Positions 13,742-58,104 are shown, counted from the first letter of the stretch. The stretch is 64,000 bases of DNA from Deltaproteobacteria bacterium (GCA_016218805.1 JACRCW010000025.1:1646-65645); one strand, 5' to 3'. Notes: generated by a model not told the origin, from the sequence alone. Program-made: numbers and translations.

Positions 13742-13787
13742 GGGGCCCTGCTCCCGGGATGGGAAGGATGGGGAATTGCGGCGCGCG

Positions 13788-15917: not shown

Positions 15918-16010
15918 GGCGCGAGAACGCTCCGCTGGGACCGAGAACGATTTGGGTAACACAAAGTCGTGAGCGGCCTCAAGGTGGACGCCGTGCTCAG
16001 CGCGCCTCCA

Positions 16011-17366: not shown

Positions 17367-17377
17367 GGCCGCCTAGC

Positions 17378-42371: not shown

Positions 42372-43835
42372 ATGCACAAGCGGTGGCTCGCCTACGGAGC
42401 CTGCGTTCTCCTCGTCGCCACGGGTGCCGGGGCGGAGACCCCGCCGGCGCCCGACAAGGTCGCGCCCAAGGCGCCCACGGAGGACGACGCCAAGGCGCGC
42501 TTCCTCCGCGGCAAGGAGCTGTACGCGCAGGGCGACTTTGACGGTGCCATCCGCGAGTGGCAGGCGGCGCACGAGCGGGCACCCAAACCGGAGCTGCTGT
42601 TCAACATTGCGCGGGCGTGTGAGCAGGCGGGCCGCACCGAGGACGCCATCCGCAACTACCGCCGCTACCTGGACGAGGCGAAGGACCCGCCCGACCGTCC
42701 CAGCGTGGAGGCCACCATTGCGCGCCTGCAGGAGCAGCAGGACGCCCGGGCCAGCAAGGAGGGTGAAGCGCGCAAGCAGGAGCAGGCGGCCGAACACCTG
42801 CGCAAGGGCCGCGAACTCTACCAGGCCAGCCGCTACGCCGACGCGCTCAAGGAGCTGCAGGCGGCTTTTGAGCTCGTTCCGTCCGCCACGCTGGTTTACA
42901 ACATGGCCAAGACGCGCGAGCGGTTGGGGGACCTGCGCGGCGCGCTGGGTGACTACCGCCGCTACCTGGAGATGGAGCCGCGGGCACCGGACCGCTCCGA
43001 CGTGGACTTTGTAATCAAGGCGCTGGAGAAGAAACTGGGCCAGTCCATCAACGAGCTGGCCCTGGAGTCCAGCCCGCCCGGCGCGGAGGTCTACCTGGAC
43101 GACGGGACCGCCCTGGCTGGTCAGACGCCGCTCACGCTCCGCGTGGTGGCCGGGCCGCACAAGCTCCGCGTGGTGCGCAACGGTTTTGAGCCGGCGGTGC
43201 GGGACTTCACCATGCCGGAGGACCGGCCGCTGACCCTGACGTTTGACCTGCGGCCGCTGGAGAACGTGGGCTGGCTCAGTGTGGACTGCGACCAGGAAGG
43301 CAGCCACATCTTCCTGGACGGCACCATCCTGGCGCTCACGCCCTACCGGGACCGGCGTGCGCTGCCCGCGGGCCGCCACCAGGTGGTCCTGGAGCGCACG
43401 GGCTACGAGCGGTTTGTGCAGGTGGTGGACGTCAAGCAGGGCAAGGAGACGCACGTGCGCGTACGGCTGCAGTCCGCCGGGGGCCGCTCCGTTCTCCCGT
43501 TGGTGCTGGCGCCGCTGCTGGGGACGCCGCTGGTGCTGGCGGGCGCCGCCGCGGGCGGCCTGTCCGGCGCGTTGTTCTACCGGGCGCGCTCCGTCATTGA
43601 CGGGACGCCGGCCTGGCAGCGCGCGCTGGGCGGGATGGGCGCGGCCGCCGCCGCCGCCGTGGTGCTGGTGCTGACCGGAGCGGGCGTGTGCGGCGGCATC
43701 GTGGGACTGTGGGTGGCGCTGGGCCTGGTGGGCCGCAGCGGCAGTGACGTCAGCGTGCGCCCCGGGCCGGCCACCGCGGAGACCGCACCCGCCCCGACGG
43801 CCAAGCCACCCGCGCCCGCCGGAGGTGCGCCGTGA
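42372..43835 (+). CDS. secreted TPR-repeat protein with PEGA domains and C-terminal TM/Ala-Gly-rich region
   Basis: Start MHKRWLAYGACVLLVATGAGA signal; four TPR-like units; PEGA-like modules. Confidence 0.7.
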   Translation: MHKRWLAYGACVLLVATGAGAETPPAPDKVAPKAPTEDDAKARFLRGKELYAQGDFDGAIREWQAAHERAPKPELLFNIARACEQAGRTEDAIRNYRRYLDEAKDPPDRPSVEATIARLQEQQDARASKEGEARKQEQAAEHLRKGRELYQASRYADALKELQAAFELVPSATLVYNMAKTRERLGDLRGALGDYRRYLEMEPRAPDRSDVDFVIKALEKKLGQSINELALESSPPGAEVYLDDGTALAGQTPLTLRVVAGPHKLRVVRNGFEPAVRDFTMPEDRPLTLTFDLRPLENVGWLSVDCDQEGSHIFLDGTILALTPYRDRRALPAGRHQVVLERTGYERFVQVVDVKQGKETHVRVRLQSAGGRSVLPLVLAPLLGTPLVLAGAAAGGLSGALFYRARSVIDGTPAWQRALGGMGAAAAAAVVLVLTGAGVCGGIVGLWVALGLVGRSGSDVSVRPGPATAETAPAPTAKPPAPAGGAP

Positions 43836-44974
43836 CCTCCCGCCTGCCCCGCGCGCTGGCCGTGCTGGCCCTGGCCGTGTTTGCCGCGGCGGGCAGCTGC
43901 CCGTTCTCCGGGCTGCCCGTGCCGTGCGCCACGCCGGAGATTCCCGTCTCCACCGGCCTCACCTTCCTTGTGGGCGGGGACCCCACGTGCTCGGAGAATG
44001 GGACCCCGCTGTGCGCCAACTCCATTGGTGATGACGGTGACCGCACCATCCCGGAGCACCTGGTGAGCCTGGACCCGTTCCTGGTGGACCAGACGGAGGT
44101 CAGCAACATCCAGTACCGGGAATGCGTGGACCGCGGCGCCTGCGGCCTCCCGTTGGACTGCGTGCCGGGCGCGCCGTTCCTGGCGTTGGGGGCGCGCGTC
44201 AATCCCGCCGGCGGCTGCCGGTTTGAGCTGCGCCAGTATGACGACCTGCCGGTGGTGGCGGTGAGCTGGGACGACGCCCGGCGGTACTGTGAATGGCGCG
44301 GCAAGAGCCTGCCCACCGAGGCGCAGTGGGAGCGGGCCGCCGTGGGCCCGCGGGGAGAGGGCGAGGCCGCGCGCAAGTTCCCGTGGGGCGACGAGGCGTC
44401 CTTTGAAGGGCGCGCGCAGGTCACGCCCGAGGACCGGTGCGACGGATTCCTCAAGGACCGGCCCGCGCCCGTCCGGGACGAGGCCCGCCGGGCAGGGCGC
44501 TCCGTGGAGGGCGTCTATGACCTGGCGGGCAACGTGCGCGAGTGGACCCTGGATGACTTTGACCCGGCGCTCTACTGCCGGGACACCACGCCCTCCGCCG
44601 AGGAACGGGCGGCCCACGGCGGCGCGGACTGCGGGGGCGCGGAGCACCGCGAGTGCCCGCGCACCGACCAGGCGCCGCTGCCCCCCGCCGTCGTGGCCAA
44701 CCCGGTCTACGGCGGCAGCGCCGCGCGCAAGGTCGTCCGCGGGGGGGCGTTCTGCTCCACCAACGTCTCGCAGGTGCAGCATGACTGCGACCTGCACGCG
44801 CGCTCACGCGCGGGACTCCAGCGCGACTTCCAGACGGCGGACCTGCCTTCCGTGCCCCTGCTCACCGCGCGCCTGGCTGGCCTGTACAATGACGCCCAGC
44901 TCACCGGCTTCCGGTGTGTGCGCAACGGCCTGGTGCCGGACCCCGCGCTGTCCTACTGCCCGCTGCTGCCCTGA
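43832..44974 (+). CDS. formylglycine-generating enzyme (FGE-sulfatase/SUMF1) family lipoprotein
   Basis: Lipobox LAVFAAAGSC; FGE signature VSWDDARRYCEWRGKSLPTEAQWE, LAGNVREW, RGGAF; GTGA overlap with upstream stop. Confidence 0.8.
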   Translation: MTSRLPRALAVLALAVFAAAGSCPFSGLPVPCATPEIPVSTGLTFLVGGDPTCSENGTPLCANSIGDDGDRTIPEHLVSLDPFLVDQTEVSNIQYRECVDRGACGLPLDCVPGAPFLALGARVNPAGGCRFELRQYDDLPVVAVSWDDARRYCEWRGKSLPTEAQWERAAVGPRGEGEAARKFPWGDEASFEGRAQVTPEDRCDGFLKDRPAPVRDEARRAGRSVEGVYDLAGNVREWTLDDFDPALYCRDTTPSAEERAAHGGADCGGAEHRECPRTDQAPLPPAVVANPVYGGSAARKVVRGGAFCSTNVSQVQHDCDLHARSRAGLQRDFQTADLPSVPLLTARLAGLYNDAQLTGFRCVRNGLVPDPALSYCPLLP

Positions 44975-46722
44975 GGCGCGGCGCCCGGGGACACGGGCAG
45001 CAGGTGGTCACGCAGCCAACGCTCCTCCTGTTCCACCACGTCGGCCGCGCCCAGGCGCTGTGCCAGCACCCGGCGCTCCTCGTGCAGCCGGCGCGAACAG
45101 CACGCCCGGGCCACCGCTTCGTCATACGCCTCCAGCGCCTGGGGTAGCGCGCCGCGGGCAAACCGCCCGCGGGCCAGCACCATGGGGCCGGCGGGCAGCC
45201 ACGGTGCCAGGCGGGCAGCGCGGATCGCGGCCTCGTCGTGCTCCCGCCACAGTGCGGCCTGCTCATCCGGGTCCTGCGTGCGCTGGATGGACAGCAGGAT
45301 CTCCTCGGCCAGCGTGAGCTGCGCCCGCGCGTCGTAGCTCAGCAGCTGCGCGCCCGCCCGCGTGGCCGCCAGGTTGGGCTCTTCTCCCGGCAGGCGCGGT
45401 ACACCGCGGTCCGCCAGCCCCACGCCGGCGCATACCCACGCGGCGGCCAGGAAGCCTGCGCCCGCCGCCATCCGCGCGGGCGCGGGAAGCTCGTCCAGGT
45501 CCTGCGGGGAGGCCGTGCGCGCGCACAGCCAGCCCAGCGCAATCCACAGGCCCAGGCCCGCCACGTGGTGCGCGTCATAATCCACCTGGTGGTGCAGGAT
45601 GGACGCCAGCACCCCCGTCGCCGCCAGCACCTCCGGCAGCTCCCCCCGCGCGGCCCACCGCAGCGCCCACGCCGCCAGCGCCCCGTACATCACCACCGCC
45701 AGCAGGCCGCCCAGCGGACCCAGCTCCACCATCATCTGCAGGACCCCGCTGTGCACGTAGGCGGCGTAGCGGCGGGGCGGTGACAGGTGGTTGAACGCGG
45801 ACTCAAAGGCACCGGCCCCCACGCCCCACGGCGGCAGGTGCGCCAGCATGGCCGCGGCATTGGCCCAGTCCTCCAGCCGCTCGCGCCCGCTCATGGCGGC
45901 GGACGCATCCGGCCGCCATGACCGCAACCACCACACCAATGCCAACGCCGCGGCCACCGCCAGCCACGCCAGCAGCACCGTGCCCCACCGGCGCCTGCGC
46001 CAGCCCGCCGCCGTGATCCCCAGCACCACCGCCCCGCCCAGCGCCAGCGCCGCCCCCACCGACTGGGTCATCAGCAGCACCAGGCCGCCCAGGGACGCCA
46101 GCGCCAGCCAGGTGGCGCGGACGCCGGGGCGGCCGCCTTCGCGCGCGGCCAGGGCGGCCAGCATGCCCAGCAGTGGGAGCAGAAAGCCCGCCAGCATGTC
46201 CGGCGAGCTGAACGGTCCCATGGCGCGGTGCCGCGTCACCCACAGCTCCGCGAACCCGCGCGCCTGGGCGTCCTCCACCGTGGCCGCCAATTCCCCGGCG
46301 GCCTCCAGGCTCCCGCCCAGCTGCCGCAGCGCGGACAGCGCGCACGCTGCCACCGCCACGCCCGCGCCCAATTCCAGCGCCCGCTCCTGCCCGCGGGATG
46401 CCAGCAGCAGCGCGGCCCCGCCGGCCCACAGCGTCACAGTCCACGCGGACTGCCCGGCATCCACGCTCCACGTCATGCTGGCCAGCTGCCAGGCCAGCAG
46501 GGCCAGCACGGGTATCTCCAGGCGCACGCGGGGTGCGCGCTCCATCACCGCCAGGGCCAGCAGGCCCAGCGGCGCGGTGGCCATGGACAAGCCGGGCAGC
46601 AGCACCTGGGGCACCACGGGCGCGGCGGCGGCCAGCAGCAGCAGCACGTGCTGGGCGCGGCCGCTGAGGCCCCGCAGCCCCGGGCGCTCTTCCGTGGGCA
46701 GGGATGCGGGGGGCGTGCTCAC
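44953..46722 (-). CDS. O-antigen ligase (Wzy_C) family polytopic membrane protein with C-terminal TPR-like soluble domain; candidate protein O-oligosaccharyltransferase
   Basis: about 10 TM helices; O-antigen-ligase-like loop; 4-nt overlap with upstream ABC permease gene; 22-nt convergent overlap with FGE gene. Confidence 0.55.
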   Translation of the reverse strand: MSTPPASLPTEERPGLRGLSGRAQHVLLLLAAAAPVVPQVLLPGLSMATAPLGLLALAVMERAPRVRLEIPVLALLAWQLASMTWSVDAGQSAWTVTLWAGGAALLLASRGQERALELGAGVAVAACALSALRQLGGSLEAAGELAATVEDAQARGFAELWVTRHRAMGPFSSPDMLAGFLLPLLGMLAALAAREGGRPGVRATWLALASLGGLVLLMTQSVGAALALGGAVVLGITAAGWRRRRWGTVLLAWLAVAAALALVWWLRSWRPDASAAMSGRERLEDWANAAAMLAHLPPWGVGAGAFESAFNHLSPPRRYAAYVHSGVLQMMVELGPLGGLLAVVMYGALAAWALRWAARGELPEVLAATGVLASILHHQVDYDAHHVAGLGLWIALGWLCARTASPQDLDELPAPARMAAGAGFLAAAWVCAGVGLADRGVPRLPGEEPNLAATRAGAQLLSYDARAQLTLAEEILLSIQRTQDPDEQAALWREHDEAAIRAARLAPWLPAGPMVLARGRFARGALPQALEAYDEAVARACCSRRLHEERRVLAQRLGAADVVEQEERWLRDHLLPVSPGAAPQGSSGQ

Positions 46723-47465
46723 TTGAGATCCCGGCGCTCAAACACAATGCCCGCCACCAGCACCAGCGCCACGGCGTGAACCACCGCGTCAGCCAGCACC
46801 AGCGCCGTGCGGGAGGCATCCAGCGGGTGGGCGTTGAAGTCCAGCCGCTGCAGGTTGGGCATGGCCCAGGCGGCCAGGCGGAGCATCCAGGCCAGCGCGG
46901 CCTCGCCTTGGGTTTCTGCGTAGCGGCGGAGTTCGTCGCCCCCCAGACCCACCAGCCACGTCGCCAGGCCGCACACGGCGGCCACCGTGGTGCCGGCAAA
47001 CGCCGTGAAGACCAGCGTCGCCGCCACCACCAGCGCCGCCTCCGCCCCCAGCCCCAGCAGCGGCACCAGCAGGCCCGCTCCGGGCGCATCCGACACGGCA
47101 ACGGCCAGGCGCAGCAGCAGCCCGGCCAGCAGCGTGTTCACCCACAGCAGCGCGGACAGGCCCAGGAACTTCCCCGCCATCAGCTGCATGCGGGTGACCG
47201 GCCGCACCAGCACGGTCAGGAGCATCCGCCGGTCATCCGCGCCGCCCATGCTCTGCACGGCCATCATCACCGCCAGCAGCGCGTTGACGCCGGACAACAG
47301 CGCCAGCGCGGTGTCCCGCAGCGTGCGCCCTTTCTCCCCAATGGTGAGCCCCTCCAGCAGCAGGGCCATGCCCACCGCAAACACGGCAAACACCGCCAGG
47401 TTGACAAACACCTGGCTGCGGACGCCTTCGCGGAACGTGGCGCGCGCAATGACCAGGACCCTCAT
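46719..47465 (-). CDS. ABC-2 type transporter permease (PilI-like)
   Basis: Start MRVLVIARATFREG at 47465 (ATGA overlap with ATPase stop); 6 predicted TM helices. Confidence 0.7.
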   Translation of the reverse strand: MRVLVIARATFREGVRSQVFVNLAVFAVFAVGMALLLEGLTIGEKGRTLRDTALALLSGVNALLAVMMAVQSMGGADDRRMLLTVLVRPVTRMQLMAGKFLGLSALLWVNTLLAGLLLRLAVAVSDAPGAGLLVPLLGLGAEAALVVAATLVFTAFAGTTVAAVCGLATWLVGLGGDELRRYAETQGEAALAWMLRLAAWAMPNLQRLDFNAHPLDASRTALVLADAVVHAVALVLVAGIVFERRDLK

Positions 47466-48415
47466 GGCGAGTTCCTCCCCTCCACCGGTGCCAGCGCGTG
47501 TGCCTGCAGGACCAGTTCCTCCAGCGCGCCCTGGCGGGGGAGGACCCCCAGCACCTGGCAGCCTGATGCCAGCGCCAGCTCCAGGGCGGCGTTGATGCTG
47601 CCGGGGTCCTGCAACTCCCACACGTGCACGGGCCCCGCCGTGCGGACCGGCCCCAGCTTCTCCAGCGCCCCCAGCGTCCCCGGCCGCCCGCCGGACAGGC
47701 GGACCTCCACGCTGGTGGTGGTGCCCGCGGCCACCTCAGCCAGCGTTCCGGCCCGGAACACGCGCCCGCGCGCCAGGACCGCCACGTCGTCGCACAGCGC
47801 TTCCACGTCCGCCAGCACGTGTGACGAGAACAGCACCGTGCACCCCCGCGCGTGCTCCGCACGGATGATTTCCCGGACATGGTGGCGTCCCAGCGGGTCC
47901 AACCCGCTCATGGGCTCATCCAGCACCAGCAGGTCCGGCAGCGCGCACAGCGCCACGGCAATACCCAGGCGCTGCTGCATGCCCTTGGAGTACGTGTGCA
48001 GCCGGTCGCCCGCGGCGCGGCCCAGCCCCACGCGCTCCAGCAGCCCGTCACGGCGCCCGGTCCAGCCCGCGTCCCGGACCCCGGCCAGACCGGCCTGGAA
48101 GTCCAGCACCTCCGCACCGGTGAGGAAGCGCGGGTAGACCGGCAGCTCCGGCAGGTAGCCCAGGCGTGCACGGGCCCGGAGGCTCCCGAGCGGCTCGCCC
48201 AGCAGCGTGCCGCGGCCCGCGTCAGGGCGGACAAAGCCCAGCAGCATCCGCAGTGTGGTGGTCTTCCCGGCGCCGTTGGGGCCAATCAGCCCCACCACGT
48301 GCCCCGCGGGCACCTGCAGCGTGACGTCGTCAACCGCCAGCACGCGCCGGCCCCAGAAGCCCACGCGGAACACCTTGCGCAGGTGTTGGACCTCGCAGGC
48401 CAGGGGCGCGCTCAC
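47462..48415 (-). CDS. ABC transporter ATP-binding protein (PilH-like)
   Basis: Walker A GPNGAGKTT, signature LSGGQ-like YSKGMQQRL, Walker B LLVLDEP, H-loop. Confidence 0.85.
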   Translation of the reverse strand: MSAPLACEVQHLRKVFRVGFWGRRVLAVDDVTLQVPAGHVVGLIGPNGAGKTTTLRMLLGFVRPDAGRGTLLGEPLGSLRARARLGYLPELPVYPRFLTGAEVLDFQAGLAGVRDAGWTGRRDGLLERVGLGRAAGDRLHTYSKGMQQRLGIAVALCALPDLLVLDEPMSGLDPLGRHHVREIIRAEHARGCTVLFSSHVLADVEALCDDVAVLARGRVFRAGTLAEVAAGTTTSVEVRLSGGRPGTLGALEKLGPVRTAGPVHVWELQDPGSINAALELALASGCQVLGVLPRQGALEELVLQAHALAPVEGRNSP

Positions 48416-49326
48416 GGCGCGCTCCCGGGCGGCGGCGGAGCATCATGCCCGCGCAGGTGGATGCGCGGTACCGGCGCGGCCAGATTCACGCTGCCGTCAC
48501 CTGCAAGGACCACAGGCTGACCGGCCGCCCGGGGAACCCCGCCCAGCAGCCCGGCGGCCACCACTTCATCCAGGGTGGCCGGAAGACGCCCCTCCCGCTG
48601 GCGGTAGCTGGCCACCGCCGCCTCCACGTTGCGCAGCGTGCACTCCACCTTCAGGTCCCGCACGCGTGCAGCCAGCGCCGCCTGTCCCTGCCCTGGCGGG
48701 CTCATGTCCAGGATCTGCTCCGCGGTGCGCTGGGCAATGAGGCACGCCTCGTCACGCGACCGCAGGCGGCCCGCGGCTTGCGCCAGATAGGGCGGCGCGT
48801 CTGGCAGCGCCGACGCCCGCTCCCACGCCGCAGCGGCGGCCGTGGTATTGAACAACGCCGTGAGCTGCAGGGCCCCCTCCAGGAACGGGAAGCGCCATTG
48901 GTTGGGGAAGTGGCTGCCGGCCTCGTGGGCCACCGCGGCTGCTTCACGCTCCCCGCCCTTCTCCGTCGACAGGATCAGCGCACCTACCCACCACGCGTCG
49001 GCAAACCCGCTGTCCAGGTCCAGCACCAGGCGCAACAGGGGTTGCAGCGCGGGACGGACGGCCTGGTGGCGGTTGTCCCCCGCGTAGCTGGCAAACCTCA
49101 GCCATTGGATGTCCGCCGCGGCCCGGCCCCGCAGCAGGCCGTGGAACAGCGCCACCGGGTAGGAGGGTACGTTGGGGTGCATCACGGGCGGCCTGGCGCC
49201 CTGGACCTGCCCGTCCAGCCACGCATGCGTGCCTGCCGCAGCCACCAGCAACAGGGCGGGGACGGCCCGCGTCGTGGCCGCCATCCCTCGAGACGTGCTC
49301 GGCGGTATTGGGGATGCTCGGCTCAT
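48412..49326 (-). CDS. hypothetical secreted protein (PilG-like accessory protein of ABC transporter)
   Basis: Start MSRASPIPPSTSRGMAATTRAVPALLLVAAAGTHA (signal) at 49326, CAT at 49324-26 checked; ATGA-type overlap with ATPase gene. Confidence 0.5.
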   Translation of the reverse strand: MSRASPIPPSTSRGMAATTRAVPALLLVAAAGTHAWLDGQVQGARPPVMHPNVPSYPVALFHGLLRGRAAADIQWLRFASYAGDNRHQAVRPALQPLLRLVLDLDSGFADAWWVGALILSTEKGGEREAAAVAHEAGSHFPNQWRFPFLEGALQLTALFNTTAAAAAWERASALPDAPPYLAQAAGRLRSRDEACLIAQRTAEQILDMSPPGQGQAALAARVRDLKVECTLRNVEAAVASYRQREGRLPATLDEVVAAGLLGGVPRAAGQPVVLAGDGSVNLAAPVPRIHLRGHDAPPPPGSAP

Positions 49327-49595
49327 GCCTGCAACAGCCTGCCGGGTGTGGGTGGGAACGGGTCCGGCAAGGGATTGCTGAAGTAGTCCATCACAGCAGG
49401 GACGCGCGAGCTTCAAAGGGACGCGGCCCCGTCCGGGAAACGGCCCAGCGCCGGGGCCCGCCCGGGAGCAGCAGCTTGTTGGAACGGCTGGTGGCTTGTT
49501 GCGGACCGTCTCACGCACTCGGCGGGCGAACGCGCAACCAAGCCCGCGGAAGGCGTGGAACCGACCAACGACCCAGCGCGCGGGCCGGTGCCGGC

Positions 49596-49638
49596 AAAGA
49601 CAACGAGACACCCCCGACAGACCAGCCGGGGGTGTCTC
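49596..49638 (-). terminator. rho-independent terminator downstream of pilA
   Basis: Perfect 12-bp GC-rich inverted repeat GAGACACCCCCG-10 nt-CGGGGGTGTCTC followed on transcript by GUUGUCUUU. Confidence 0.55.
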
Positions 49639-49653
49639 TCGTCATTCACTGAT

Positions 49654-50067
49654 TCAGTTGCAGGCGTTGGTTCCGTTGGCGGGTTGCGCGCTGTTCTGGT
49701 CGATGGTCCAAATGTCATCGGCACCAGAGGTGTTGATGCGGACCCGGTTGTCCTGCGCGGTAGCTGAGAAGTTGCTGCCGCCCGTGATGGTGTAGTTGTA
49801 GTACTTGGTGTTGCCGACGGTCTTGGTGTCCAGGCCGCCGAACGACGTGAGCTGGTCGAGGTTCAGATAGGAGCCGAACTCACCGTTGTAGGCGAGCTGG
49901 GTGGTGTACACGGCCTTCAGGCCCGTCTTGGCCTCGGTCTGCTTGGCCTTGCACTGGAACTTGAGGAAGTTGGGAATGGCGATGGCTGCCAAGATGCCGA
50001 TGATGGCGACGACGATCATCAGCTCGATGAGCGTGAAGCCCTTGGCAATCTTCTTGAGTGCGGACAT
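49654..50067 (-). CDS. pilA: type IV pilin (PilA-like, 137 aa)
   Basis: ATG at 50067 with SD GGAGGA; prepilin leader [10 protein letters not shown] then [28 protein letters not shown]; Ser/Thr/Asn-rich C-domain ending ...NGTNACN. Confidence 0.85.
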
Positions 50068-50119
50068 GAGGATCCTCCGTTGGGTGTTCGCGCGTGCACA
50101 GCGCGGCAGGCGTGCCTCT

Positions 50120-50135
50120 AGCACGGGGCGAGCCA
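50120..50135 (-). promoter_or_regulatory. candidate sigma54 (-24/-12) promoter for pilA: TGGCTC-N5-GTGCT
   Basis: On minus strand TGGCTCgccccGTGCT with GG/GC spacing identical to TGGCAC-N5-TTGCW, about 50 nt upstream of pilA ATG; AT-rich palindrome TTTTCG-ct-CGAAAA about 25 nt further upstream (plus 50157-50170). Confidence 0.35.
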
Positions 50136-50269
50136 CCGGCAACAGGATCTTGCCCGTGGTTTTCGCTCGAAAAACGGGCAGGTGCGGCTGACCACTGACG
50201 AACTTTGTCACTGCCTACAGTCACGCAGTGACGCGTGCCGTCACCCAGGCACCGGGGTATGGGGGGCGG

Positions 50270-51196
50270 ATGGAACTTGACGTCGCAACCGCCATCCGGA
50301 CGCTGTGGCTCCTGTTCGGGGCCACGGTGGGAGCGTGCCTGGGGTCCTTTGCCAACGTCGTGGTCGCCCGCGTGCCAGCGGGCGAAAGCATCGTCCACCC
50401 GCCCAGCCGCTGCCCGCACTGCGGCACGCCCATCGCCCCCTGGCACAACATCCCTGTGGCCAGCTGGCTGGCACTGCGCGGCAGGGCGCGGTGCTGCGGC
50501 GCGCCCATCGCCGCGCGTTACGTGGTCGTGGAGCTTGCGGGTGCGCTGCTGGGCTGGTCCTTGGTGCTGCGGGACGGGCCCTCAGCCGAAGCCGTGATGC
50601 ATGGCCTGGCGTTGCTGGCGCTGCTGTGCGTGGCGCTCATTGACCTGGAACACTGGATCATCCCGCCCGCCCTGTCGTTGGGGCTCATCCCCGTGGGGCT
50701 GCTGGGCAACGCGTGGGTGGGCTGGCAGGCGGACGCCTCGCTGGCGGGGATGGCGGGCCACCTGCTGCGCCACAGCGTCCTGGGTGGCGTGGCCGGGTTT
50801 CTGGTGCTGTGGGTGATGCGGGTGACCAGCACGGCATTGCTGCGGCGCACGGGCCGGTTGGCCCCGGATGAGGACGCCATGGGCTCCGGGGATGAAGACC
50901 TGCTGGCGGGGGTGGGCGCGGTGCTGGGGCCGGCGGGCGTGTTCTGGACGCTGTTCCTGGGTGCGGCCCAGGGTGCCGCGGCCGGGATCACCCTCAGAAT
51001 CGGCAGGGCCGCGCGCGGTGAGCCCGAACAGTCCGTCCCCCTGCCCGACGGGTGGACGCCGCCATCCGGGTCGCTGCCATTTGGCCCGTTCCTGGCGCTG
51101 GCCGCCACGGAGTTCCTCTTCCTGTCCACCTACCTGCCATCCGTGTCCCTGCCGCCGTGGGGCCTGCTGCTGGGCCTGGGTGACGGCGAGCCGTGA
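50270..51196 (+). CDS. pilD: prepilin peptidase (A24 family leader peptidase/N-methyltransferase)
   Basis: ATG at 50270 (MELDVATAIRTLWLLFG); zinc tetracysteine CPHCGTPI..CCGAPI; multiple TM helices; catalytic Asp region. Confidence 0.85.
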   Translation: MELDVATAIRTLWLLFGATVGACLGSFANVVVARVPAGESIVHPPSRCPHCGTPIAPWHNIPVASWLALRGRARCCGAPIAARYVVVELAGALLGWSLVLRDGPSAEAVMHGLALLALLCVALIDLEHWIIPPALSLGLIPVGLLGNAWVGWQADASLAGMAGHLLRHSVLGGVAGFLVLWVMRVTSTALLRRTGRLAPDEDAMGSGDEDLLAGVGAVLGPAGVFWTLFLGAAQGAAAGITLRIGRAARGEPEQSVPLPDGWTPPSGSLPFGPFLALAATEFLFLSTYLPSVSLPPWGLLLGLGDGEP

Positions 51197-51238: not shown

Positions 51239-52303
51239 ATGGTGGCGCGTCCGCTCCTGGCCCGGCTGTTGTTGCCCTGCCTGCTGTCCGGCTGCGGCGA
51301 GGAGCGCCTGGTGGACTCCGGGGGTGGCGGCGGGCCGGCGCACACTGCGGACGACGCCGGGACCGGCACCGCGCGGTCGCTTGATGACCCCCAGATGGTG
51401 CCGTTGGTGCCCGAACCGGTCCAACCGGTGCGCGTGCACGATGGCCGCCGCGGCCCGCCCTACCCGGTGGTGCTGGCGCACGGTCTCAACGGTTTCCGGG
51501 ACGTGGGACCGGTGGACTACTACTTCCGCGTCCCCGGCGCGCTGCAGGACGCCGGGGTGGAGGTCTACGTCACGGCGGTGGCACCGTACGACGGCAGCAC
51601 GGCGCGGGCGCGCGCGCTGGCGGCAGAGATTGACCGCATCCTCGCCCAGTCGGGTGCCGCGCGGGTGAACATCATCGCGCACAGCCAGGGCGGCATTGAC
51701 AGCCGCTACCTCATCTCCACGCTGGGCTACGGCGACCGCGTGGCCAGCCTGACCACCATCTCCACGCCGCACCGGGGCACCCACGTGGCGGACCTCATCG
51801 CCGGCGGCGGCGTGGTGGCGGTGGCCATCGCGGACGCCTGGGCGTGGCTGTTCGGTGAGCTGTCACGGGACACCGTCAATGACCCCAATTCCCGCGCCGC
51901 CCTGGAGACGTTGTCCACCGCCGGGATGGAGGCCTTCAACCGCGCCAACCCGGATGACCCGCGGGTGCGGTACTTTTCGTTCGCCGGGCGCAGCAACCTG
52001 CAGAAGGCGGACGCGGAGTGCGGGGCGGGTGAGCGCGGCAACCCCGACGCGGTGGACACCATTGAGCCGGCGCTGCTGCCAACGTGGGCGTACCTGGCGG
52101 ACTCACTGACGGACCCGGTGCCCAACGACGGGCTGGTCACCGTGCCCAGCGCCCGGTGGGGGCGCTTCATGGGCTGCCTCCCGGCCGACCACGCCGACGA
52201 GATCGGCCAGCTGGCGGACCTGTTCCCGGACCTGGTGAGCGGGTGGGACCACGTGGGTTTCTACGTCGAGTGGGTGGCCTACCTGCGCGGCCTGGGCCTG
52301 TGA
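51239..52303 (+). CDS. secreted lipase/esterase (alpha/beta hydrolase, lipase class 2-like) lipoprotein
   Basis: Lipobox LLPCLLSGC; VVLAHGLNGF, nucleophile elbow AHSQGG, His near C-terminus. Confidence 0.8.
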   Translation: MVARPLLARLLLPCLLSGCGEERLVDSGGGGGPAHTADDAGTGTARSLDDPQMVPLVPEPVQPVRVHDGRRGPPYPVVLAHGLNGFRDVGPVDYYFRVPGALQDAGVEVYVTAVAPYDGSTARARALAAEIDRILAQSGAARVNIIAHSQGGIDSRYLISTLGYGDRVASLTTISTPHRGTHVADLIAGGGVVAVAIADAWAWLFGELSRDTVNDPNSRAALETLSTAGMEAFNRANPDDPRVRYFSFAGRSNLQKADAECGAGERGNPDAVDTIEPALLPTWAYLADSLTDPVPNDGLVTVPSARWGRFMGCLPADHADEIGQLADLFPDLVSGWDHVGFYVEWVAYLRGLGL

Positions 52304-52352
52304 AGCCGCGGCGCCTTTCTGGCCTTCCCAAACCCGCTGCGCCACACTGGCT

Positions 52353-52778
52353 GTGATGTGTGCGTGGTTGCCGCAACGGGCCAGACCGCTCCGCCTCGTT
52401 GCGGGCACGGCGGAGGGGCTCGCCCTGCTGCTGGTGGTGGGGTGCACGCAGACCATGCATGCGTTTCCGGAGGAATACGTTGGCGTGGGGGTGGAACTCA
52501 CGGTCCGGGACGGCGTGCCCCAGGTGGTGCAGGTGGTGCCCGGCAGCCCGGCGGACATGGCGGGCCTGGCGCCGGGCATGGAGTTGCGCACGGTGGCCGG
52601 CGAAGACGTGCGCGGGCGCCCGCTGGCCGACGTGGTGAAGCTGCTGCGCGGCAAGCCGGAGACGCGTGTGAGCGTGGAGGCCGCCCAGGGTGGCCGGACC
52701 TTCCGCGTGTCACTGCTGCGGCGCAGCCTGACGCGGGCGGGTGCTGACGGCGGGGGCTATCTGACGGGCAGCCGCTGA
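52353..52778 (+). CDS. small PDZ-domain lipoprotein
   Basis: LLLVVGC lipobox-like; PDZ core GVGVELTVRDGVPQVVQVVPGSPADMAGLAPGMEL; start uncertain. Confidence 0.5.
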   Translation: MMCAWLPQRARPLRLVAGTAEGLALLLVVGCTQTMHAFPEEYVGVGVELTVRDGVPQVVQVVPGSPADMAGLAPGMELRTVAGEDVRGRPLADVVKLLRGKPETRVSVEAAQGGRTFRVSLLRRSLTRAGADGGGYLTGSR

Positions 52779-52789
52779 CGGGCCGCGGG

Positions 52790-54685
52790 TCACCCGGGCT
52801 GGCAGCAGAACGTCACCGGCCCGGATGCCGTGACCTCACCGGTGGGTGACGCCGTGGCGGTGCACGCCGCCGCGCCGGAGAAGTTCCCCGAGATGGCCAC
52901 GCTGACCGTACCTGTGGCGGCACCGCGGTCCACGCATTCCTGGCCCACCGTGAGGTTGTCCAGCGGCGCGGGCAGCCGGAGGGTGCAGCGGGTGTCCGCC
53001 CATGCCGCAATGCTGGTGATGGCGCAGTTCCCGGTGCGGTTGCAGGTACACGCCGTGCAGCTGCGCCCGTCCAAAGCGTCACGGTGGTACAGCGCACGCA
53101 CCGGCCAGGCGGCGGGGCAGGCGAGGTCCCCGTCCTGGTGGATGCACAAGGGCGCCGGAAATGGCGCGGTATCCGGCCAGCACGTCCCACCCGCCGCGCA
53201 CACGTGGTCCACCGGCCCGGCGCCGGTGCACGCGGACAGCGTGGTCAACGCGGTCCACGGCGCCGTGGAGGACGTGCCGGTGGCCGCGCAGGTCTGGCCG
53301 CCGGTCTCCAGCGCCACCGTGGCGGAATCCACGTTGCTGGCCAGCGAGATGTCCTGGCAGGCCTGCAACATGGTCTCCGTCACCACCTCAGAGAAGACGA
53401 GCGGCAGCCCCAGGCAGTTCCGCCCCAGGTAGCGCCGCACGCGCAGTGCGCACTCCGCCGCGCAACTGCACGGACAGGAAGCGGACGCACCGGTGATGCC
53501 GGCGTAGGCCGCCAGCTCTGGCGTGGGCCAGGCGGGCGGGCAGGCAGATGCGGCGGTGGCCGCATGCGCCGCCACGGGGCCACTCCACCCGGGCTCCACG
53601 GCGGGAGCACAGGTGAACCCGCACGGAGGCTTCACGGCAATGTTCACCGTGCTGGTGGTGGCGCCGACGTCATTGTGGGCGGTGACCACGTAGGTGGTTC
53701 GGGGGGACAGGACGTTGGGCCGCCCGGAGATGGCACCCGTCACCGCATCCATGAGCAGGCCGTTGGGCAGCGGCGGGTCCACCGTGAACGAGTTGGCACC
53801 GGCCGCACCGACGGGAAGGTTGGGCGTGACATCCACTCCCAGGGCCCAGGTCACCTCCGGCTCCGCGTACGCAAAGGGCGCCGGCGGGTCCAACACCGCC
53901 AGGTAGAGCGTGAAGTCGGACTGGCCGCCGCTGTTGGCGGCCGTGATCACGTATGCGCTGCGGGCGGCCACGTCGGTGGGGATGCCGGAGACCACGCCGG
54001 TAAGGGCGTGCAGGACCAGCCCGGGGGGCAGGGACGGGGCGGCGGTGAACGCCAGCGGCGTGCCCCCTGTCAGCGAAGGCACGTTGGGCGTGATGGGATC
54101 CCCGCGCCGGTAGCTGGCAATGGGCTCAGAGTAGGTGACGATGAGCGGCGGCACATCCACCACCGTGACGGCGAGCGTGGCGTGCCCCGCGAACGACGGG
54201 CCGCTGGCCGTGACGCCGAATTCGGTACGCGGGGACACCGCCGCAGGCTGGCCCGTGATGACGCCGGTGGCGGCATCCAGCACCAGGCCCACCGGGAGCG
54301 CCGGAGTCACCGCAAACGCTGTGGCGCCCTCGGCGCCCACCGGGGTGTTGGGGGCGATCACGCTGCCCAGGACGTAGACCGCGTCCGGGGTTGCGTAGGT
54401 GAATTGCACCGGCCCACCGGAGGACGCGGACGCGGCCCCCGCGGACGAGGACGCGGCGAACGACGACGGTGCTCCGGCGAGCGATGACGGTGCGCCGGCG
54501 GACGACGAGGGTGCGCCGGCGGACGACGCGGTCCGCGCGGACGAGGGTCCCGGGGACGCGGCGGAAGCGGCCGAGGAGGAAGCAGGGGCGCCGACGGGGT
54601 CATTGCCCCCGGTGGTCCGCTGTTCGGGACAAGCGGCAAGGGCGGAAACCAGCACTCCCAGCACCGCGGCGCGGCATGCGTGCAT
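52790..54685 (-). CDS. surface lipoprotein with Ser/Ala-rich linker, tandem putative-Ig (He_PIG-like) repeats and Cys-rich C-terminal domain
   Basis: Start MHACRAAVLGVLVSALAAC at 54685; four repeats with LP.GL..D..TG.I.G.P pattern; about 30 Cys in last 250 aa. Confidence 0.6.
   Translation of the reverse strand: MHACRAAVLGVLVSALAACPEQRTTGGNDPVGAPASSSAASAASPGPSSARTASSAGAPSSSAGAPSSLAGAPSSFAASSSAGAASASSGGPVQFTYATPDAVYVLGSVIAPNTPVGAEGATAFAVTPALPVGLVLDAATGVITGQPAAVSPRTEFGVTASGPSFAGHATLAVTVVDVPPLIVTYSEPIASYRRGDPITPNVPSLTGGTPLAFTAAPSLPPGLVLHALTGVVSGIPTDVAARSAYVITAANSGGQSDFTLYLAVLDPPAPFAYAEPEVTWALGVDVTPNLPVGAAGANSFTVDPPLPNGLLMDAVTGAISGRPNVLSPRTTYVVTAHNDVGATTSTVNIAVKPPCGFTCAPAVEPGWSGPVAAHAATAASACPPAWPTPELAAYAGITGASASCPCSCAAECALRVRRYLGRNCLGLPLVFSEVVTETMLQACQDISLASNVDSATVALETGGQTCAATGTSSTAPWTALTTLSACTGAGPVDHVCAAGGTCWPDTAPFPAPLCIHQDGDLACPAAWPVRALYHRDALDGRSCTACTCNRTGNCAITSIAAWADTRCTLRLPAPLDNLTVGQECVDRGAATGTVSVAISGNFSGAAACTATASPTGEVTASGPVTFCCQPG
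54430..54600 (-). repeat. imperfect tandem DNA repeats (~18-21 bp units) encoding Ser/Ala-rich linker
   Basis: Plus strand ggtgcgccggcggacgacg-like units repeated; protein SSAGAPSSSAGAPSSLAGAPSSF. Confidence 0.4.
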
Positions 54686-54726
54686 GGCGCGCAGGGTAGC
54701 CCCCGGACCTGCCGCCTTCCACCGCC

Positions 54727-55431
54727 TCACGGCGCAGCCGCGGCATCACAGACGACGACGCAGCGCGGGTGCAGCCGCAACGCAAGCTGGACGGGCATGG
54801 CCTGGATGTCCACCGGGTCCGCCAGCGCGCGGCGCAGCACCGCCGCCTTGGACGCACCGGTCACCAGCACCACCACGTGCGCCGCACGGGCTATCTCCGC
54901 GGGGGTCACGGTGAGCCGGCGGTGCCGCGGCGTGCCTTCGTGAACGGCCACCACGCGCTCCCCGGAGGGGGTCAACGCCCCGCTGCCCGGGAACAGGCTT
55001 GCGGTGTGCGCGTCATCCCCCAGGCCCAGCAACAGGACGTCCAGCCCGCGGTCCCCCAGGCAGGTCTGCAGTTCCGCGGAGGCGCGGCGCGCTTCCACGT
55101 CAATATCCGCCGCCTCCCCGCGCAGGCGGTGGACCATGTCCGGCGGGAAGTGGCGCGTGAGCGCAAGGTGCGCCATGCGCGCATTGCTGTCCGCGTGGTC
55201 CGGCGGCACGCACCGCTCATCCCCAAAGAACAGGTGCACACCGGTGAGCCGGGCAGGATCACCCTCCAGGGCCATCCGCTCATACAGCGCCCGCGGCGTG
55301 CTCCCGCCGGACAATCCCAACGCCGCCGTGCCGGACCGGCCGCGCGCTTCCAGCAGCCCCGTGACCACCAGCGCACGCGCGGCCACCGCCACGTCTCCGG
55401 GCGCGGCACACCGCAGCAGCACCGCCGTCAC
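54727..55431 (-). CDS. pgl: 6-phosphogluconolactonase
   Basis: GLSGGSTP motif, 234 aa, downstream of zwf-opcA. Confidence 0.85.
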   Translation of the reverse strand: MTAVLLRCAAPGDVAVAARALVVTGLLEARGRSGTAALGLSGGSTPRALYERMALEGDPARLTGVHLFFGDERCVPPDHADSNARMAHLALTRHFPPDMVHRLRGEAADIDVEARRASAELQTCLGDRGLDVLLLGLGDDAHTASLFPGSGALTPSGERVVAVHEGTPRHRRLTVTPAEIARAAHVVVLVTGASKAAVLRRALADPVDIQAMPVQLALRLHPRCVVVCDAAAAP

Positions 55432-56522
55432 GCCGCCATCTCCACCGCCCGCGCCAGCACCCGCGGGAACGCCGGGTCAAACGCCCGCGGCCCCATGGCG
55501 CGCGCCACGCGGTCCCCCAGTGACGATGGATCCAGCGCCATGCTGCGCACCCCCACCGCCGTCTCGATGAGCGCCACCGGCTCGCTGCCGCGGCGCACGC
55601 GCACCACCTGGTCCCGCATCACCAGCTCCAGCAGCGTCTCCGGCTCCGCCCCACCGGGCGGTGCGGGAACCGCGGTCAGCTCCACGGTCAGCGCACCCGC
55701 CGGGCCACTGAACACGCTGGTGCGCCGCGCACCCGCGCGCAGGTTGTCAGGCGGGCCGCGCCACTTGAGCCGCTCAGCCAGCCAGGCCACCAGCAGCACG
55801 CGCCCGGCCATCCGCGCCGCCGGAGCCACCAGGTTCACCTGCGTGAGGGTGCCCAGCGCCGCGCGCGGCCCGTCATGGTCAAACACGCTGGCAATGGAGC
55901 TGCGCAACCCCGCCAGCCCCAGCCAGCCCAGGTCCACCACCTGGCGCGCCCCGTCAGCCAGCGCCTCCATGCGAACCAGTTCCCGGAGGTCCGTGAGCAT
56001 GGCGGTGTCAATGATCAGGCGGTCACACAGGCCCAGCAGCGGGGTGACGGCGGTGGTGCCCGCCGTGGGCGGACGCACCAGGAGGAACATGGTGGGGACG
56101 TTGGCCACCAGCAGCGCGCGGACCACCGCGGCCACGTGGCGCAGCCCGTCCCCGCGCGCCACCAGCGTCACCTCCTCGGAGCACACCAGCTTGCCGCCGC
56201 CGGGCGCCAGGATGCAGTTGGCGCTGATGTAGCTCTCAAACGCCGGCGCGTCGTCACGGGCCGGCTCGCTCTTCACAATGAGCACGCGCGCGGGCACGCT
56301 GACCACCAGCGCATCAAACGCCTGCTTGAGGGCGGCCAGGTGCGCGTCGTCCTCGCACCACACCACCAGGTTGGCCAGGCACGCGCGCGTGACCGGTTTC
56401 AGGTCGGCCGCGCCCGCCTCGCCGGAGGCGCTGCGCCACAGCGCCGCAAACTCCCGCTCAATGGCGGCCACGTCCACACCCACGTCCTCGCCCCGGCCCA
56501 GCCGTTCCGTGGTGGCCGTCAC
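55428..56522 (-). CDS. opcA: glucose-6-phosphate dehydrogenase assembly protein OpcA
   Basis: OpcA-like sequence directly after zwf; start assigned to GTG overlapping zwf stop (GTGA); ATGA overlap with pgl. Confidence 0.7.
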   Translation of the reverse strand: MTATTERLGRGEDVGVDVAAIEREFAALWRSASGEAGAADLKPVTRACLANLVVWCEDDAHLAALKQAFDALVVSVPARVLIVKSEPARDDAPAFESYISANCILAPGGGKLVCSEEVTLVARGDGLRHVAAVVRALLVANVPTMFLLVRPPTAGTTAVTPLLGLCDRLIIDTAMLTDLRELVRMEALADGARQVVDLGWLGLAGLRSSIASVFDHDGPRAALGTLTQVNLVAPAARMAGRVLLVAWLAERLKWRGPPDNLRAGARRTSVFSGPAGALTVELTAVPAPPGGAEPETLLELVMRDQVVRVRRGSEPVALIETAVGVRSMALDPSSLGDRVARAMGPRAFDPAFPRVLARAVEMAA

Positions 56523-58042
56523 GGGCGCCTCCAGGTGCGGCCGGTGCGCGCCAGCAGCGCGTCCGCCTCCGCCGGCCCCCACGTCCCCGCCTCGTACGGC
56601 GGCATGTCCGGGCGGCGGTCCGCGGCCCACGTCTCATGAATGCGGCTGACGTAGCGCCAGCTCTCCAGCACCCAGTCCGCGCGCGTGAACAGCGTGGTGT
56701 CACCCAGCATGCAGTCCAGCAGCAGGCGCTCATAGGCTTCCGGGGGCTCCGCGCCAAAGCTGGACGCGTAGCGGAACTCCATGGTCACCGGCGTGACGGC
56801 CACGGACGGACCGGGGACCTTGGAACCCATGTTGAGGCTGATACCCTCGTCAGGCTGGATGCGCAGCGCCAGCACGTTGGGCACCACGTGCGCGGCGCCA
56901 AACAGCGCCAGCGGCGCCTGCTTGAAATGGATGGCCACCTCCGTGACGCGCTTGGGCATGCGCTTGGCGCTGCGCAGGAAGAACGGCACGCCGGCCCAGC
57001 GCCAGTTGTCAATGGCCATCTCCAGCGCCACGTACGTCTCCGTGGACGACGCGGGGTTCACGCCCGGTTCCTCGCGGTAGCCGGGGACCTGGCGCGCCAG
57101 CACGCTGCCGGCGCCGTACTGGCCCCGCACCACGTGGCGCCGCACGTCCTCCGCGCTCAGCGGCCGCAGCGCCCGCAGCACCTTGGTCTTCTCATCCCGC
57201 ACGCTGGCCGCATCAAAGCCCACCGGCGGCTCCATGGCCGCCATGCACAGCACCTGCAGCAGGTGGTTCTGCACCATGTCCCGCAGGATGCCGGCTTCCT
57301 CAAAGTAGCCGCCGCGGCCCTCCACACCAATGGCCTCCGCGCCGGTGATTTGCACGTGGTCCACGTATTTGCCGTTCATGAGCGGTTCAAAGATGGCGTT
57401 GGCAAACCGGAAGACCAACATGTTCTGCACGGTCTCTTTTCCCAGGTAATGATCGATCCGGTAGATTTGTTCCTCGTCCAGCACGGCGTGCAGTTCCGCG
57501 TTGAGGCGCTCCGCCGAGCGGTAGTCCACGCCAAACGGTTTCTCCACAATGACCCGCGCGTAGCCCTGCCCGTCCCGGGGCACCAGGCCGGCGGCGCCCA
57601 GCGCCCGCACAATGGGACCAAACGACGAGGGCGGCGTGGACAGGTAGAAGATGCGGTTGGGCGGCATGCCGCTCTCCCGTTCAATCTGCTCCAGGCGCGC
57701 CTTCAGCGTCCGGTAGTCCTCCACGTTGTCAAATGACCCCTGGTGGTAGTGCACGCGTGACGCAAAGCTCTTCCACAGGTCCGCGTGCACCGGGCGCCGC
57801 CGGGCGTGTTCGTTGACGCCCTCCAGCATCTGCTCCCGGAACGCGTCATCCGCCACCGGACGCCGCGCGAACCCGACGATGGCCACGCGCGTGAGCATGC
57901 GGTCCCGCGCCAGGCTGTAGAGCGCGGGCAGCAGCTTGCGCTTGGTGAGGTCCCCGGAGGCACCAAAGATGACCACGGTGCACTCGTCGGGGATGCGGTC
58001 CTGGGCAAGTCCTTCCCTCAAGGGATTGGCGGCAACATCCAT
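56519..58042 (-). CDS. zwf: glucose-6-phosphate 1-dehydrogenase
   Basis: Start MDVAANPL at 58042; VIFGASGDL NADP motif, RIDHYLGKE active-site motif. Confidence 0.9.
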   Translation of the reverse strand: MDVAANPLREGLAQDRIPDECTVVIFGASGDLTKRKLLPALYSLARDRMLTRVAIVGFARRPVADDAFREQMLEGVNEHARRRPVHADLWKSFASRVHYHQGSFDNVEDYRTLKARLEQIERESGMPPNRIFYLSTPPSSFGPIVRALGAAGLVPRDGQGYARVIVEKPFGVDYRSAERLNAELHAVLDEEQIYRIDHYLGKETVQNMLVFRFANAIFEPLMNGKYVDHVQITGAEAIGVEGRGGYFEEAGILRDMVQNHLLQVLCMAAMEPPVGFDAASVRDEKTKVLRALRPLSAEDVRRHVVRGQYGAGSVLARQVPGYREEPGVNPASSTETYVALEMAIDNWRWAGVPFFLRSAKRMPKRVTEVAIHFKQAPLALFGAAHVVPNVLALRIQPDEGISLNMGSKVPGPSVAVTPVTMEFRYASSFGAEPPEAYERLLLDCMLGDTTLFTRADWVLESWRYVSRIHETWAADRRPDMPPYEAGTWGPAEADALLARTGRTWRRP

Positions 58043-58104
58043 GTTGGTGACCCCTGGGCGGCCCCGGGCCGCGCGCGTGGCGCCGGACCCTATCACCACG
58101 TCCC

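Follow-up and report, generated by a model that had tools for sequence, protein, structure and literature searches.

A type IV pilin operon in a 64,000 nt stretch of deltaproteobacterial DNA (GCA_016218805.1, JACRCW010000025.1:1646-65645; referred to below as the window, with about 72 % G+C) ends with a gene for a membrane enzyme of the Wzy_C (O-antigen ligase) family, which raises the question of why such an enzyme is encoded there and on which molecule it acts. The locus is a Myxococcus-type pilin locus to which a fifth operon gene, encoding a Wzy_C protein with a short, predicted periplasmic tail resembling tetratricopeptide repeats (TPRs), has been added in this lineage; the contig of one close relative is labelled Myxococcota JACRCW01. 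We favour, at a probability of roughly 0.55, a σ54-driven pilA-pilGHI operon that also encodes a dedicated glycan transferase facing the periplasm, whose target would be the pilin. What an earlier reading of this DNA from the sequence alone (the sequence-only reading) had observed at the locus was confirmed, and its interpretation, a self-contained accessory module for the export and modification of a glycosylated pilin, was partly supported.

Operon structure and conservation of the Wzy_C gene

The pilD gene is divergent from pilA, whilst pilA, pilG, pilH, pilI and the Wzy_C gene all lie on one strand. Open reading frame (ORF) calls and domain scans placed these six genes where the sequence-only reading had put them (Table 1); the NCBI start of the 304 aa PilG-like protein is 14 codons later. 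The pilG/pilH, pilH/pilI and pilI/Wzy_C junctions (GTGA, ATGA and GTGA, respectively) are each 4 nt start/stop overlaps, including the permease/Wzy_C overlap reported previously, and the pilG-pilH-pilI-Wzy_C block is translationally coupled.

Assignment of the last gene to the Wzy_C/O-antigen ligase family was borne out by Pfam, as the protein matched Wzy_C (PF04932) with 50.2 bits against a gathering threshold of 31.7 (residues 209-342) and all members of the clade described below also scored above the cut-off. Six residues (R166, R282, H324, Q329, E333 and D381) did not vary among eight sequences from three phyla, nor among eight clade representatives, and a profile-profile alignment placed H324 and R282 opposite the invariant His (H358) and Arg (R313) of PglL_A-positive proteins. 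The catalytic residues of the characterized enzymes are R215, R288 and H338 in Escherichia coli WaaL and R224, R298 and H349 in PglL (PMC3643930). Under the numbering map that we infer for WaaL, R166, R282 and H324 would correspond to its catalytic Arg, Arg and His, and judged by its conserved residues the last gene encodes an intact Wzy_C enzyme. Hydropathy indicated about 13 transmembrane (TM) helices, with every loop obeying the positive-inside rule for an N-in/C-out protein, and both the catalytic loop (residues 264-336) and the 150 aa tail are predicted to face the periplasm.

The tail, of about 150 aa, had been described as TPR-like. It aligned to the last TPRs of two Nitrospirota relatives (L016 and L021) and formed helical hairpins in AlphaFold2 (pLDDT 70-88 for the tail within the whole-protein model), which suggests a helical repeat; no Pfam TPR model detected it. 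Searches of the PDB gave no match for the single Wzy_C protein, and its profile gave one insignificant TPR match (E 1.9). An R-A/S-C-C-S motif (residues 539-543; tail at 44953-45402, minus strand) was invariant in the tails of every clade member and was absent from the Nitrospirota relatives.

The clade was defined as ten distinct loci with PilH proteins 54-61 % identical to PilH of the window. The Wzy_C gene directly follows pilI in seven of the ten (the window, L001, L002, L005, L091, L097 and L099); a pilin of 136-139 aa is encoded upstream in all six of these seven that could be checked, and pilD is divergent in five of the six, L001 having no adjacent pilD. The other three loci (L004, L096 and L101) have neither an upstream pilin nor an adjacent Wzy_C gene. 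Their pilin-less PilGHI sets (L004 508-11051; L096 2459-5081; L101 1428-4082), which are as close to the set in the window as the pilin-linked ones, may represent duplicate copies or loci that have been rearranged. In L004 a Wzy_C gene lies 6 kb from PilGHI, and the DNA between them encodes a 1060 aa protein and a 557 aa protein with seven TM helices, both without a Pfam match.

A HMMER search of 1.84 billion representative proteins with the Wzy_C protein returned 10 matches at E<=1e-30, including the query, after which the scores fell steeply; the next relatives checked beyond those 10 were Wzy_C + TPR proteins. A word-indexed search gave one non-identical match each for the Wzy_C protein and PilG, the same search with the ATPase opened the related loci, and a metagenome scan with the Wzy_C alignment added one further clade member only. 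A genome scan with the pilin alignment covered 80 of at least 386 matches, the window's own genome not being among them.

The closest relatives outside the clade were Wzy_C + TPR proteins of Nitrospirota (Nitrospira L016 and Nitrospirae L021) and Rokubacteria (L019), which have the same operon partners (hidden Markov model (HMM) scores 51-58 bits; hhalign probability 99.2 %); hhalign gave an E-value of 8e-20 against this set, compared with 4e-10 against a PglL-type set. These proteins are 617-665 aa long and possess five to six Pfam-detectable TPRs, whereas the window protein has about three degenerate repeats. In L016 and L021 the pilins are followed by the Wzy_C + TPR gene and then by pilG-pilH-pilI, so that the enzyme gene precedes pilG rather than following pilI, and in L021 it runs 4 nt into the beginning of pilG. 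In L019 the gene lies directly after the pilin gene, at the contig end.

Related Nitrospirota-like loci (L008 and L010) have no Wzy_C gene, and for this reason the gene behaves as an accessory insertion; a similar pattern of accessory genes downstream of pilA occurs in Pseudomonas pilin groups. Membrane glycosyltransferases of other families were also found beside the pilin in PilG loci, namely YfhO (L006 5516-7819 and L030 1033-3360), PMT-like + TPR (L013 4539-8273) and TMEM260-like and weakly STT3-like proteins (L087 3435-7882); a 9-TM + TPR membrane protein also occurs beside the pilin among these loci. This suggests that pilin/PilG loci have taken up glycosyltransferases of several unrelated families.

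Table 1. Features of the pilin locus, with positions counted from the first nucleotide of the window
Feature	Position	Strand	Supporting match
pilD, prepilin peptidase/N-methyltransferase	50228-51196	+	Pfam A24_N_bact 1.8e-30, Peptidase_A24 2.3e-11
σ54-type -24/-12 promoter-like element upstream of pilA, TGGCTC-N5-GTGCT	50121-50135	-	
pilA, short type IVa pilin, 137 aa precursor	49654-50067	-	N_methyl 3.6e-09
Terminator-like hairpin between the pilA stop codon and pilG, perfect 14 bp stem	49605-49638	-	
pilG-like, 304 aa, N-terminal hydrophobic anchor	48412-49326	-	Family HMM
pilH-like ABC ATPase	47462-48415	-	ABC_tran 2.2e-25
pilI-like ABC-2 permease, about 6 TM helices	46719-47465	-	ABC2_membrane_2 7.3e-08
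Wzy_C-family membrane enzyme, 589 aa	44953-46722	-	Wzy_C 3.1e-13, 50.2 bits

PilGHI, the pilin and its putative promoter

The three middle genes were compared with Myxococcaceae loci using HMMs for which the proteins of the window were combined with their relatives. The PilG-family HMM matched the ORF that immediately follows pilA in Myxococcus sp. 1LA, Corallococcus and Pyxidicoccus (about 1e-51 to 1e-53), and the PilI-family HMM matched the PilI position (about 1e-49 to 1e-58). Reference Pil proteins for blastp came from Myxococcus sp. 1LA (L038) and Corallococcus aberystwythensis (L020), not from DK1622, and were named by their place in what we take to be the canonical order of the pil cluster. 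Identities to these counterparts were 40-42 % for PilH and low for PilG (26-29 %) and PilI (25-26 %), each being the sole match in the window. The order pilA-pilG-pilH-pilI on one strand agreed with that in three of the Myxococcaceae loci (L038, L033 and L020). At the level of sequence families these results confirm that the two ABC proteins and the secreted hypothetical protein of the sequence-only reading belong to PilH, PilI and PilG.

The 304 aa PilG-like protein had no Pfam match, but its profile matched solved TPR proteins (BBS4, 1.6e-07) and its C terminus carries a faint GspG-like motif; on this profile evidence, PilG is an anchored periplasmic protein of TPR-type helical repeats. The best NCBIfam match of PilH was drrA (181 bits, below the cut-off), of the DrrA/NodI/GldA-like ABC-2 class. 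The pilin-PilG-PilH-PilI module was also found in Nitrospirota, Methylomirabilis and unclassified bacteria (L018), and in part in Bdellovibrionales, where L014 has PilG only. In Myxococcus xanthus, whose pil sub-clusters have been described (PMC5544727), deletion of pilG, pilH or pilI abolishes S motility and exopolysaccharide (EPS) production (PMC5544727) and PilGHI are needed for piliation (PMC3724824, PMC5544727). PilG/H/I have been stated to be essential for pilin translocation across the inner membrane (PMC3724824), although experimental data backing this role were said not to be available (PMC6060248).

Besides counterparts of PilA, PilG, PilH, PilI and PilD, the reference Pil set detected only a receiver-domain similarity to one response regulator in the window. 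No homologue of PilB/T/C/S/M/N/O/P/Q was present among the window ORFs in these blastp searches, and Pfam scans of the remaining large ORFs revealed no other pil gene; the pilin locus is an orphan within 64 kb, as had been reported. The locus shares with the M. xanthus-type pil segment the gene order, the homologous families, the type of pilin N terminus, an adjacent pilD and, probably, a σ54-type pilA promoter, whilst it differs in having no pilBTC, pilSR or pilMNOPQ within 64 kb, in the length of its pilin (137 aa, compared with >210 aa) and in the Wzy_C gene that is fused to its operon. The inverted pilD, previously taken as a departure from the Myxococcus order, is not unusual, as in C. 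aberystwythensis (L020, 44-20199) pilA-pilG-pilH-pilI lies inverted between pilD...pilQ and pilR-pilS-pilC-pilT-pilB; divergent pilD and pilA therefore also occur inside a complete cluster. PilD of the window was 34-36 % identical to PilD of the Myxococcus sp. and Corallococcus loci.

The pilin possesses a class III signal peptide (Gly-1, Phe+1, Glu+5 and a hydrophobic helix; KG before the cleavage site and [14 protein letters not shown] after it), giving a mature protein of about 127 aa, and has the only pilin-like N terminus in the whole window. NCBIfam PilA_Myxo (NF041775) matched its N-terminal half only (residues 7-104) with 95.5 bits, compared with a cut-off of 400, and by this cut-off the pilin is not an equivalog of Myxococcus PilA. 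It contains two cysteines, Cys39 and Cys136, and ends in ...NACN. Orthologues of 136-139 aa are encoded in L001 (two copies), L002, L005, L097 and L099, and both KFQCKAKQ (around Cys39) and the C-terminal Cys are conserved across them, which suggests a disulfide between the C terminus and the last part of the N-terminal helix; the last residue of the orthologues is N, Q, E or D. A 141 aa pilin with the same Cys pattern was found in L012, which has no Wzy_C gene.

In six loci (the window, L001, L002, L005, L097 and L099) the element TGGCxx-N5-xTGCT precedes the start of the pilin gene by about 55-75 nt. The σ54 pattern match in the window by itself was not above chance expectation, and it is the conservation of the element across loci, rather than the match, that suggests a σ54 promoter for pilA. 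The M. xanthus pilA promoter is of the σ54 type. A σ54 activator gene lies beside pilD in L097, and none was found in the window. The hairpin between pilA and pilG, which begins right behind the pilA stop codon, has a T-rich tail and is likely to be an attenuator that sets the ratio of pilA to pilGHI-wzyC expression. Because the σ54-type promoter is conserved and pilD and PilGHI are present, this is more likely to be a main pilin locus than an accessory one, which makes the term 'accessory' in the sequence-only reading doubtful.

The acceptor of the Wzy_C enzyme

If the enzyme is a pilin-directed glycan transferase, the σ54 promoter would drive pilA and the hairpin would let a fraction of the transcripts read into the coupled pilG-pilH-pilI-wzyC block. 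PilD would cleave and methylate the prepilin in the inner membrane, PilGHI (TPR protein, ABC-2 ATPase and permease) would act as in M. xanthus, where piliation needs them, and the Wzy_C enzyme would move a glycan from an undecaprenyl-diphosphate carrier to a Ser or Thr residue of the pilin globular domain, its tail docking either the pilin or PilG. Pfam scans of the remaining large window ORFs detected no glycosyltransferase, flippase or lipopolysaccharide (LPS)/EPS/polysaccharide gene apart from lpxK (17378-18499); with no glycan-synthesis genes in the window, any donor would therefore be made elsewhere, and the module can hardly be called self-contained, as it had been. Such a transferase is the best reading despite the lack of resemblance to PglL or TfpO because the operon linkage is conserved across phyla.

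All four known families of pilin O-transferase carry Wzy_C, and the genes for TfpO and TfpM come immediately behind that of their pilin (PMC9829042, PMC3643930), which ends in Ser or Thr, the C-terminal acceptor (PMC9829042). With TfpO, TfpM, PglS and PglL the window enzyme shares the Wzy_C domain, the conserved catalytic His and Arg and a gene within a pilin operon. The closer resemblance to PglL and TfpO that had been proposed did not hold. Betaproteobacterial, pilin-adjacent control proteins (L083, L051, L073 and L076) carried PglL_A (1e-8 to 1e-9), Wzy_C_2 and Wzy_C, whereas the window protein has neither of the first two domains of the PglL type. TfpO and TfpM are about 425-460 aa long without extra domains and follow their pilin immediately, whereas the window enzyme has 589 aa and a TPR-like tail and is separated from its pilin by pilG, pilH and pilI; the Nitrospirota and Rokubacteria relatives do follow the pilin. 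TfpO-like C-terminal glycosylation was rejected, as the window pilin ends in Asn.

A combination of Wzy_C with TPRs is known from S-layer glycosylation. The O-transferase WsfB joins Wzy_C with a C-terminal TPR region, and WsfB and WsaB (with WsaA), from Paenibacillus and Geobacillus, have TPRs that are either C-terminal or adjacent, and their target is one specific surface protein (PMC2943079). Their loci are Gram-positive and full of glycosyltransferase and sugar-nucleotide genes, whereas the window locus has none; its acceptor would be a pilin and its permease is of the ABC2_membrane_2 type. In the Geobacillus S-layer pathway an ABC-2 (Wzm/Wzt) exporter acts before the transfer.

Several results weigh against a pilin-directed transferase. 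The window Wzy_C protein gave no match to PglL_A (PF15864) or Wzy_C_2 (PF11846) at E<=0.01, the pilin lacks the C-terminal Ser/Thr of the TfpO/TfpM type, and the operon is without glycan-donor genes. Three genes separate the Wzy_C gene from pilA, so that its partner could be PilGHI instead of the pilin, and Myxococcaceae loci have PilGHI without any such enzyme. The Ser + Thr content of the pilin (21 %) lies within the 18-24 % of pilins whose loci have no Wzy_C gene. AlphaFold2 models of the enzyme were poor (pLDDT 48 for the whole protein with a two-sequence alignment, 64 for the tail alone), and a Foldseek search with the tail was not significant, the best match being a TPR protein (E 0.15). 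Finally, the sample of related loci was small and non-random, having been chosen by pilin similarity in the pilin-alignment genome scan.

The Ser/Thr/Asn-rich C-terminal domain had been read as consistent with a glycosylated pilin. Four N-x-S/T sequons are indeed present, of which that at 112-114 is the only one kept in all seven pilin orthologues (as N-[TSN]-S). Such sequons are sites of N-glycosylation by STT3/PglB enzymes and are irrelevant to Wzy_C O-transferases. Since the sequons concern N-glycosylation and the Ser/Thr content is ordinary, the composition of the pilin gives no independent support for glycosylation. N-glycosylation of the sequons was rejected as a candidate, there being no STT3/PglB gene in the window.

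The alternative that survives best, which we consider unlikely, is that the enzyme acts on a non-protein acceptor, as the WaaL of this lineage or as a surface-polysaccharide polymerase/ligase, with PilHI exporting a lipid-linked glycan and the pilin link reflecting co-regulation of pili and matrix. In its favour, an ABC-2 pump followed by a WaaL-type ligase is the logic of the ABC-dependent O-antigen pathway; PilH, on the other hand, best matched DrrA/GldA/NodI-type proteins, with no Wzt, KpsT or TagH among its 25 best NCBIfam matches. The Wzy_C family spans WaaL, Wzy and protein O-transferases, and PglL-specific motifs are absent here, although the protein matched no NCBIfam family at all and thus no curated ligase or polymerase model; PEP-CTERM and other curated ligase families were rejected as candidates on the same result. 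The enzyme belongs to the same superfamily as WaaL and resembles it in its conserved catalytic residues and in being polytopic with a large periplasmic loop, but it differs in having one more helix, the 13th, and repeats in a periplasmic tail, in being encoded outside an LPS locus and in its conserved operon with a pilin. No LPS or polysaccharide gene was found within the 64 kb except lpxK, 26 kb from the locus, and there is accordingly no nearby LPS cluster. The genomic context cuts both ways, as L004 keeps a Wzy_C gene near PilGHI without an upstream pilin, whereas across the clade Wzy_C adjacency tracks the pilin (six loci with both, three with neither) and the Nitrospirota and Rokubacteria genes sit directly after pilin genes. 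A possible parallel to PilH is GSU1501 (xapD) of Geobacter sulfurreducens, an ABC ATPase encoded near pil genes, which is reported to be a sugar ABC transporter that is indispensable for growth on electrodes (PMC5585712). If the enzyme were an ordinary O-antigen ligase, the finding would shrink to an unusual gene placement.

More doubtful still is a single machine of PilGHI and Wzy_C, in which PilHI would flip or present a lipid-linked glycan, PilG would bridge to the pilin and the Wzy_C-TPR protein would carry out the transfer, PilGHI being in origin a transporter for pilin glycosylation. The translational coupling of the four genes agrees with this, as do the coupling of Wzy_C-TPR to pilG within a different gene order in L021 and the presence of TPR modules on both PilG and the enzyme, and sugar-modifying genes flank PilGHI elsewhere (DegT in L008 and L010; GT2, GT4, epimerase and acyltransferase in L006). 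Against it stand PilGHI copies that have no Wzy_C gene (L096 and L101), PilI, which is NosY/GldF-like (ABC2_membrane_2) and not Wzm-like, and the Myxococcaceae, which need PilGHI for piliation (PMC3724824, PMC5544727) and have no such enzyme in the cluster.

The pilin-directed reading could be extended, at long odds, to the proposal that Wzy_C-TPR proteins of pilA-pilGHI operons form a fifth, cross-phylum family of pilin O-oligosaccharyltransferases (Myxococcota, Nitrospirota and Rokubacteria) which cooperates with PilGHI, the ABC-2 pump supplying or presenting the lipid-linked glycan and PilG holding the pilin. To our knowledge, TfpO (PilO), TfpM, PglS and PglL are the only characterized Wzy_C enzymes encoded next to pilins, and all four families are from Proteobacteria; we found no published account of pilA-pilGHI operons that contain Wzy_C-TPR genes. 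A distinct pilin-tied type in environmental phyla would widen the set of O-transferases and bring with it a built-in protein-recognition module. Pilin-adjacent O-transferases are working tools of bioconjugate vaccine engineering, and pilin glycosylation alters pilus adhesion, recognition by phages and predators, and solubility. PilGHI have been recognized as necessary for Myxococcus pili since 1998. A glycan-handling enzyme in one coupled unit with PilGHI leads to the hypothesis that either a lipid-linked glycan or the pilin is what PilGHI act on, and the fifth-family proposal, if true, would give a first mechanistic handle on their function.

A non-catalytic or differently catalytic role, as a scaffold for PilGHI or in pilin folding or disulfide handling through the invariant Cys-Cys, is very improbable. 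C541-C542-S543 does not vary in the tail, which is predicted to lie in the periplasm, and two cysteines are conserved in the pilin. However, the residues by which active Wzy_C enzymes are defined (Arg, Arg, His and the H-x3-L-Q-x3-E-x-G motif) are invariant over three phyla and would not have been kept had catalysis been lost.

Flanking genes and the remainder of the window

The other large ORFs of the window have housekeeping and signalling functions (among them uvrC, greA, fabD/fabG, G6PD-OpcA, kinases, mutS2 and lpxK). The Wzy_C gene overlaps the convergent gene for an FGE-sulfatase-domain protein (43832-44974, plus strand) by 22 nt at the 3' end (44953-44974). Downstream of pilD, a gene for an alpha/beta-hydrolase (lipase-like) and a small PDZ-domain gene (51239-52778, plus strand) form a block that is kept in L002 (5523-7097) and L005 (5446-7082).

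Among loci outside the clade, a DegT aminotransferase gene flanks PilGHI in L008 and L010 (11847-13072), and in L006 the flanking genes (10947-17730) encode GT2, GT4, an epimerase, a methyltransferase and an acyltransferase.

Elsewhere in the window, a 677 aa protein with about 12 TM helices (35895-37928, plus strand) is a fusion of an ABC-2 permease (ABC2_membrane_2/3, residues 29-392) to an Rce1-like CAAX/CPBP protease domain (residues 543-626). A secreted protein of 646 aa (52790-54730, minus strand), which contains three He_PIG Ig-like repeats and is rich in Cys in its C-terminal half, is encoded next to the G6PD-OpcA-6-phosphogluconolactonase operon (54727-58099).

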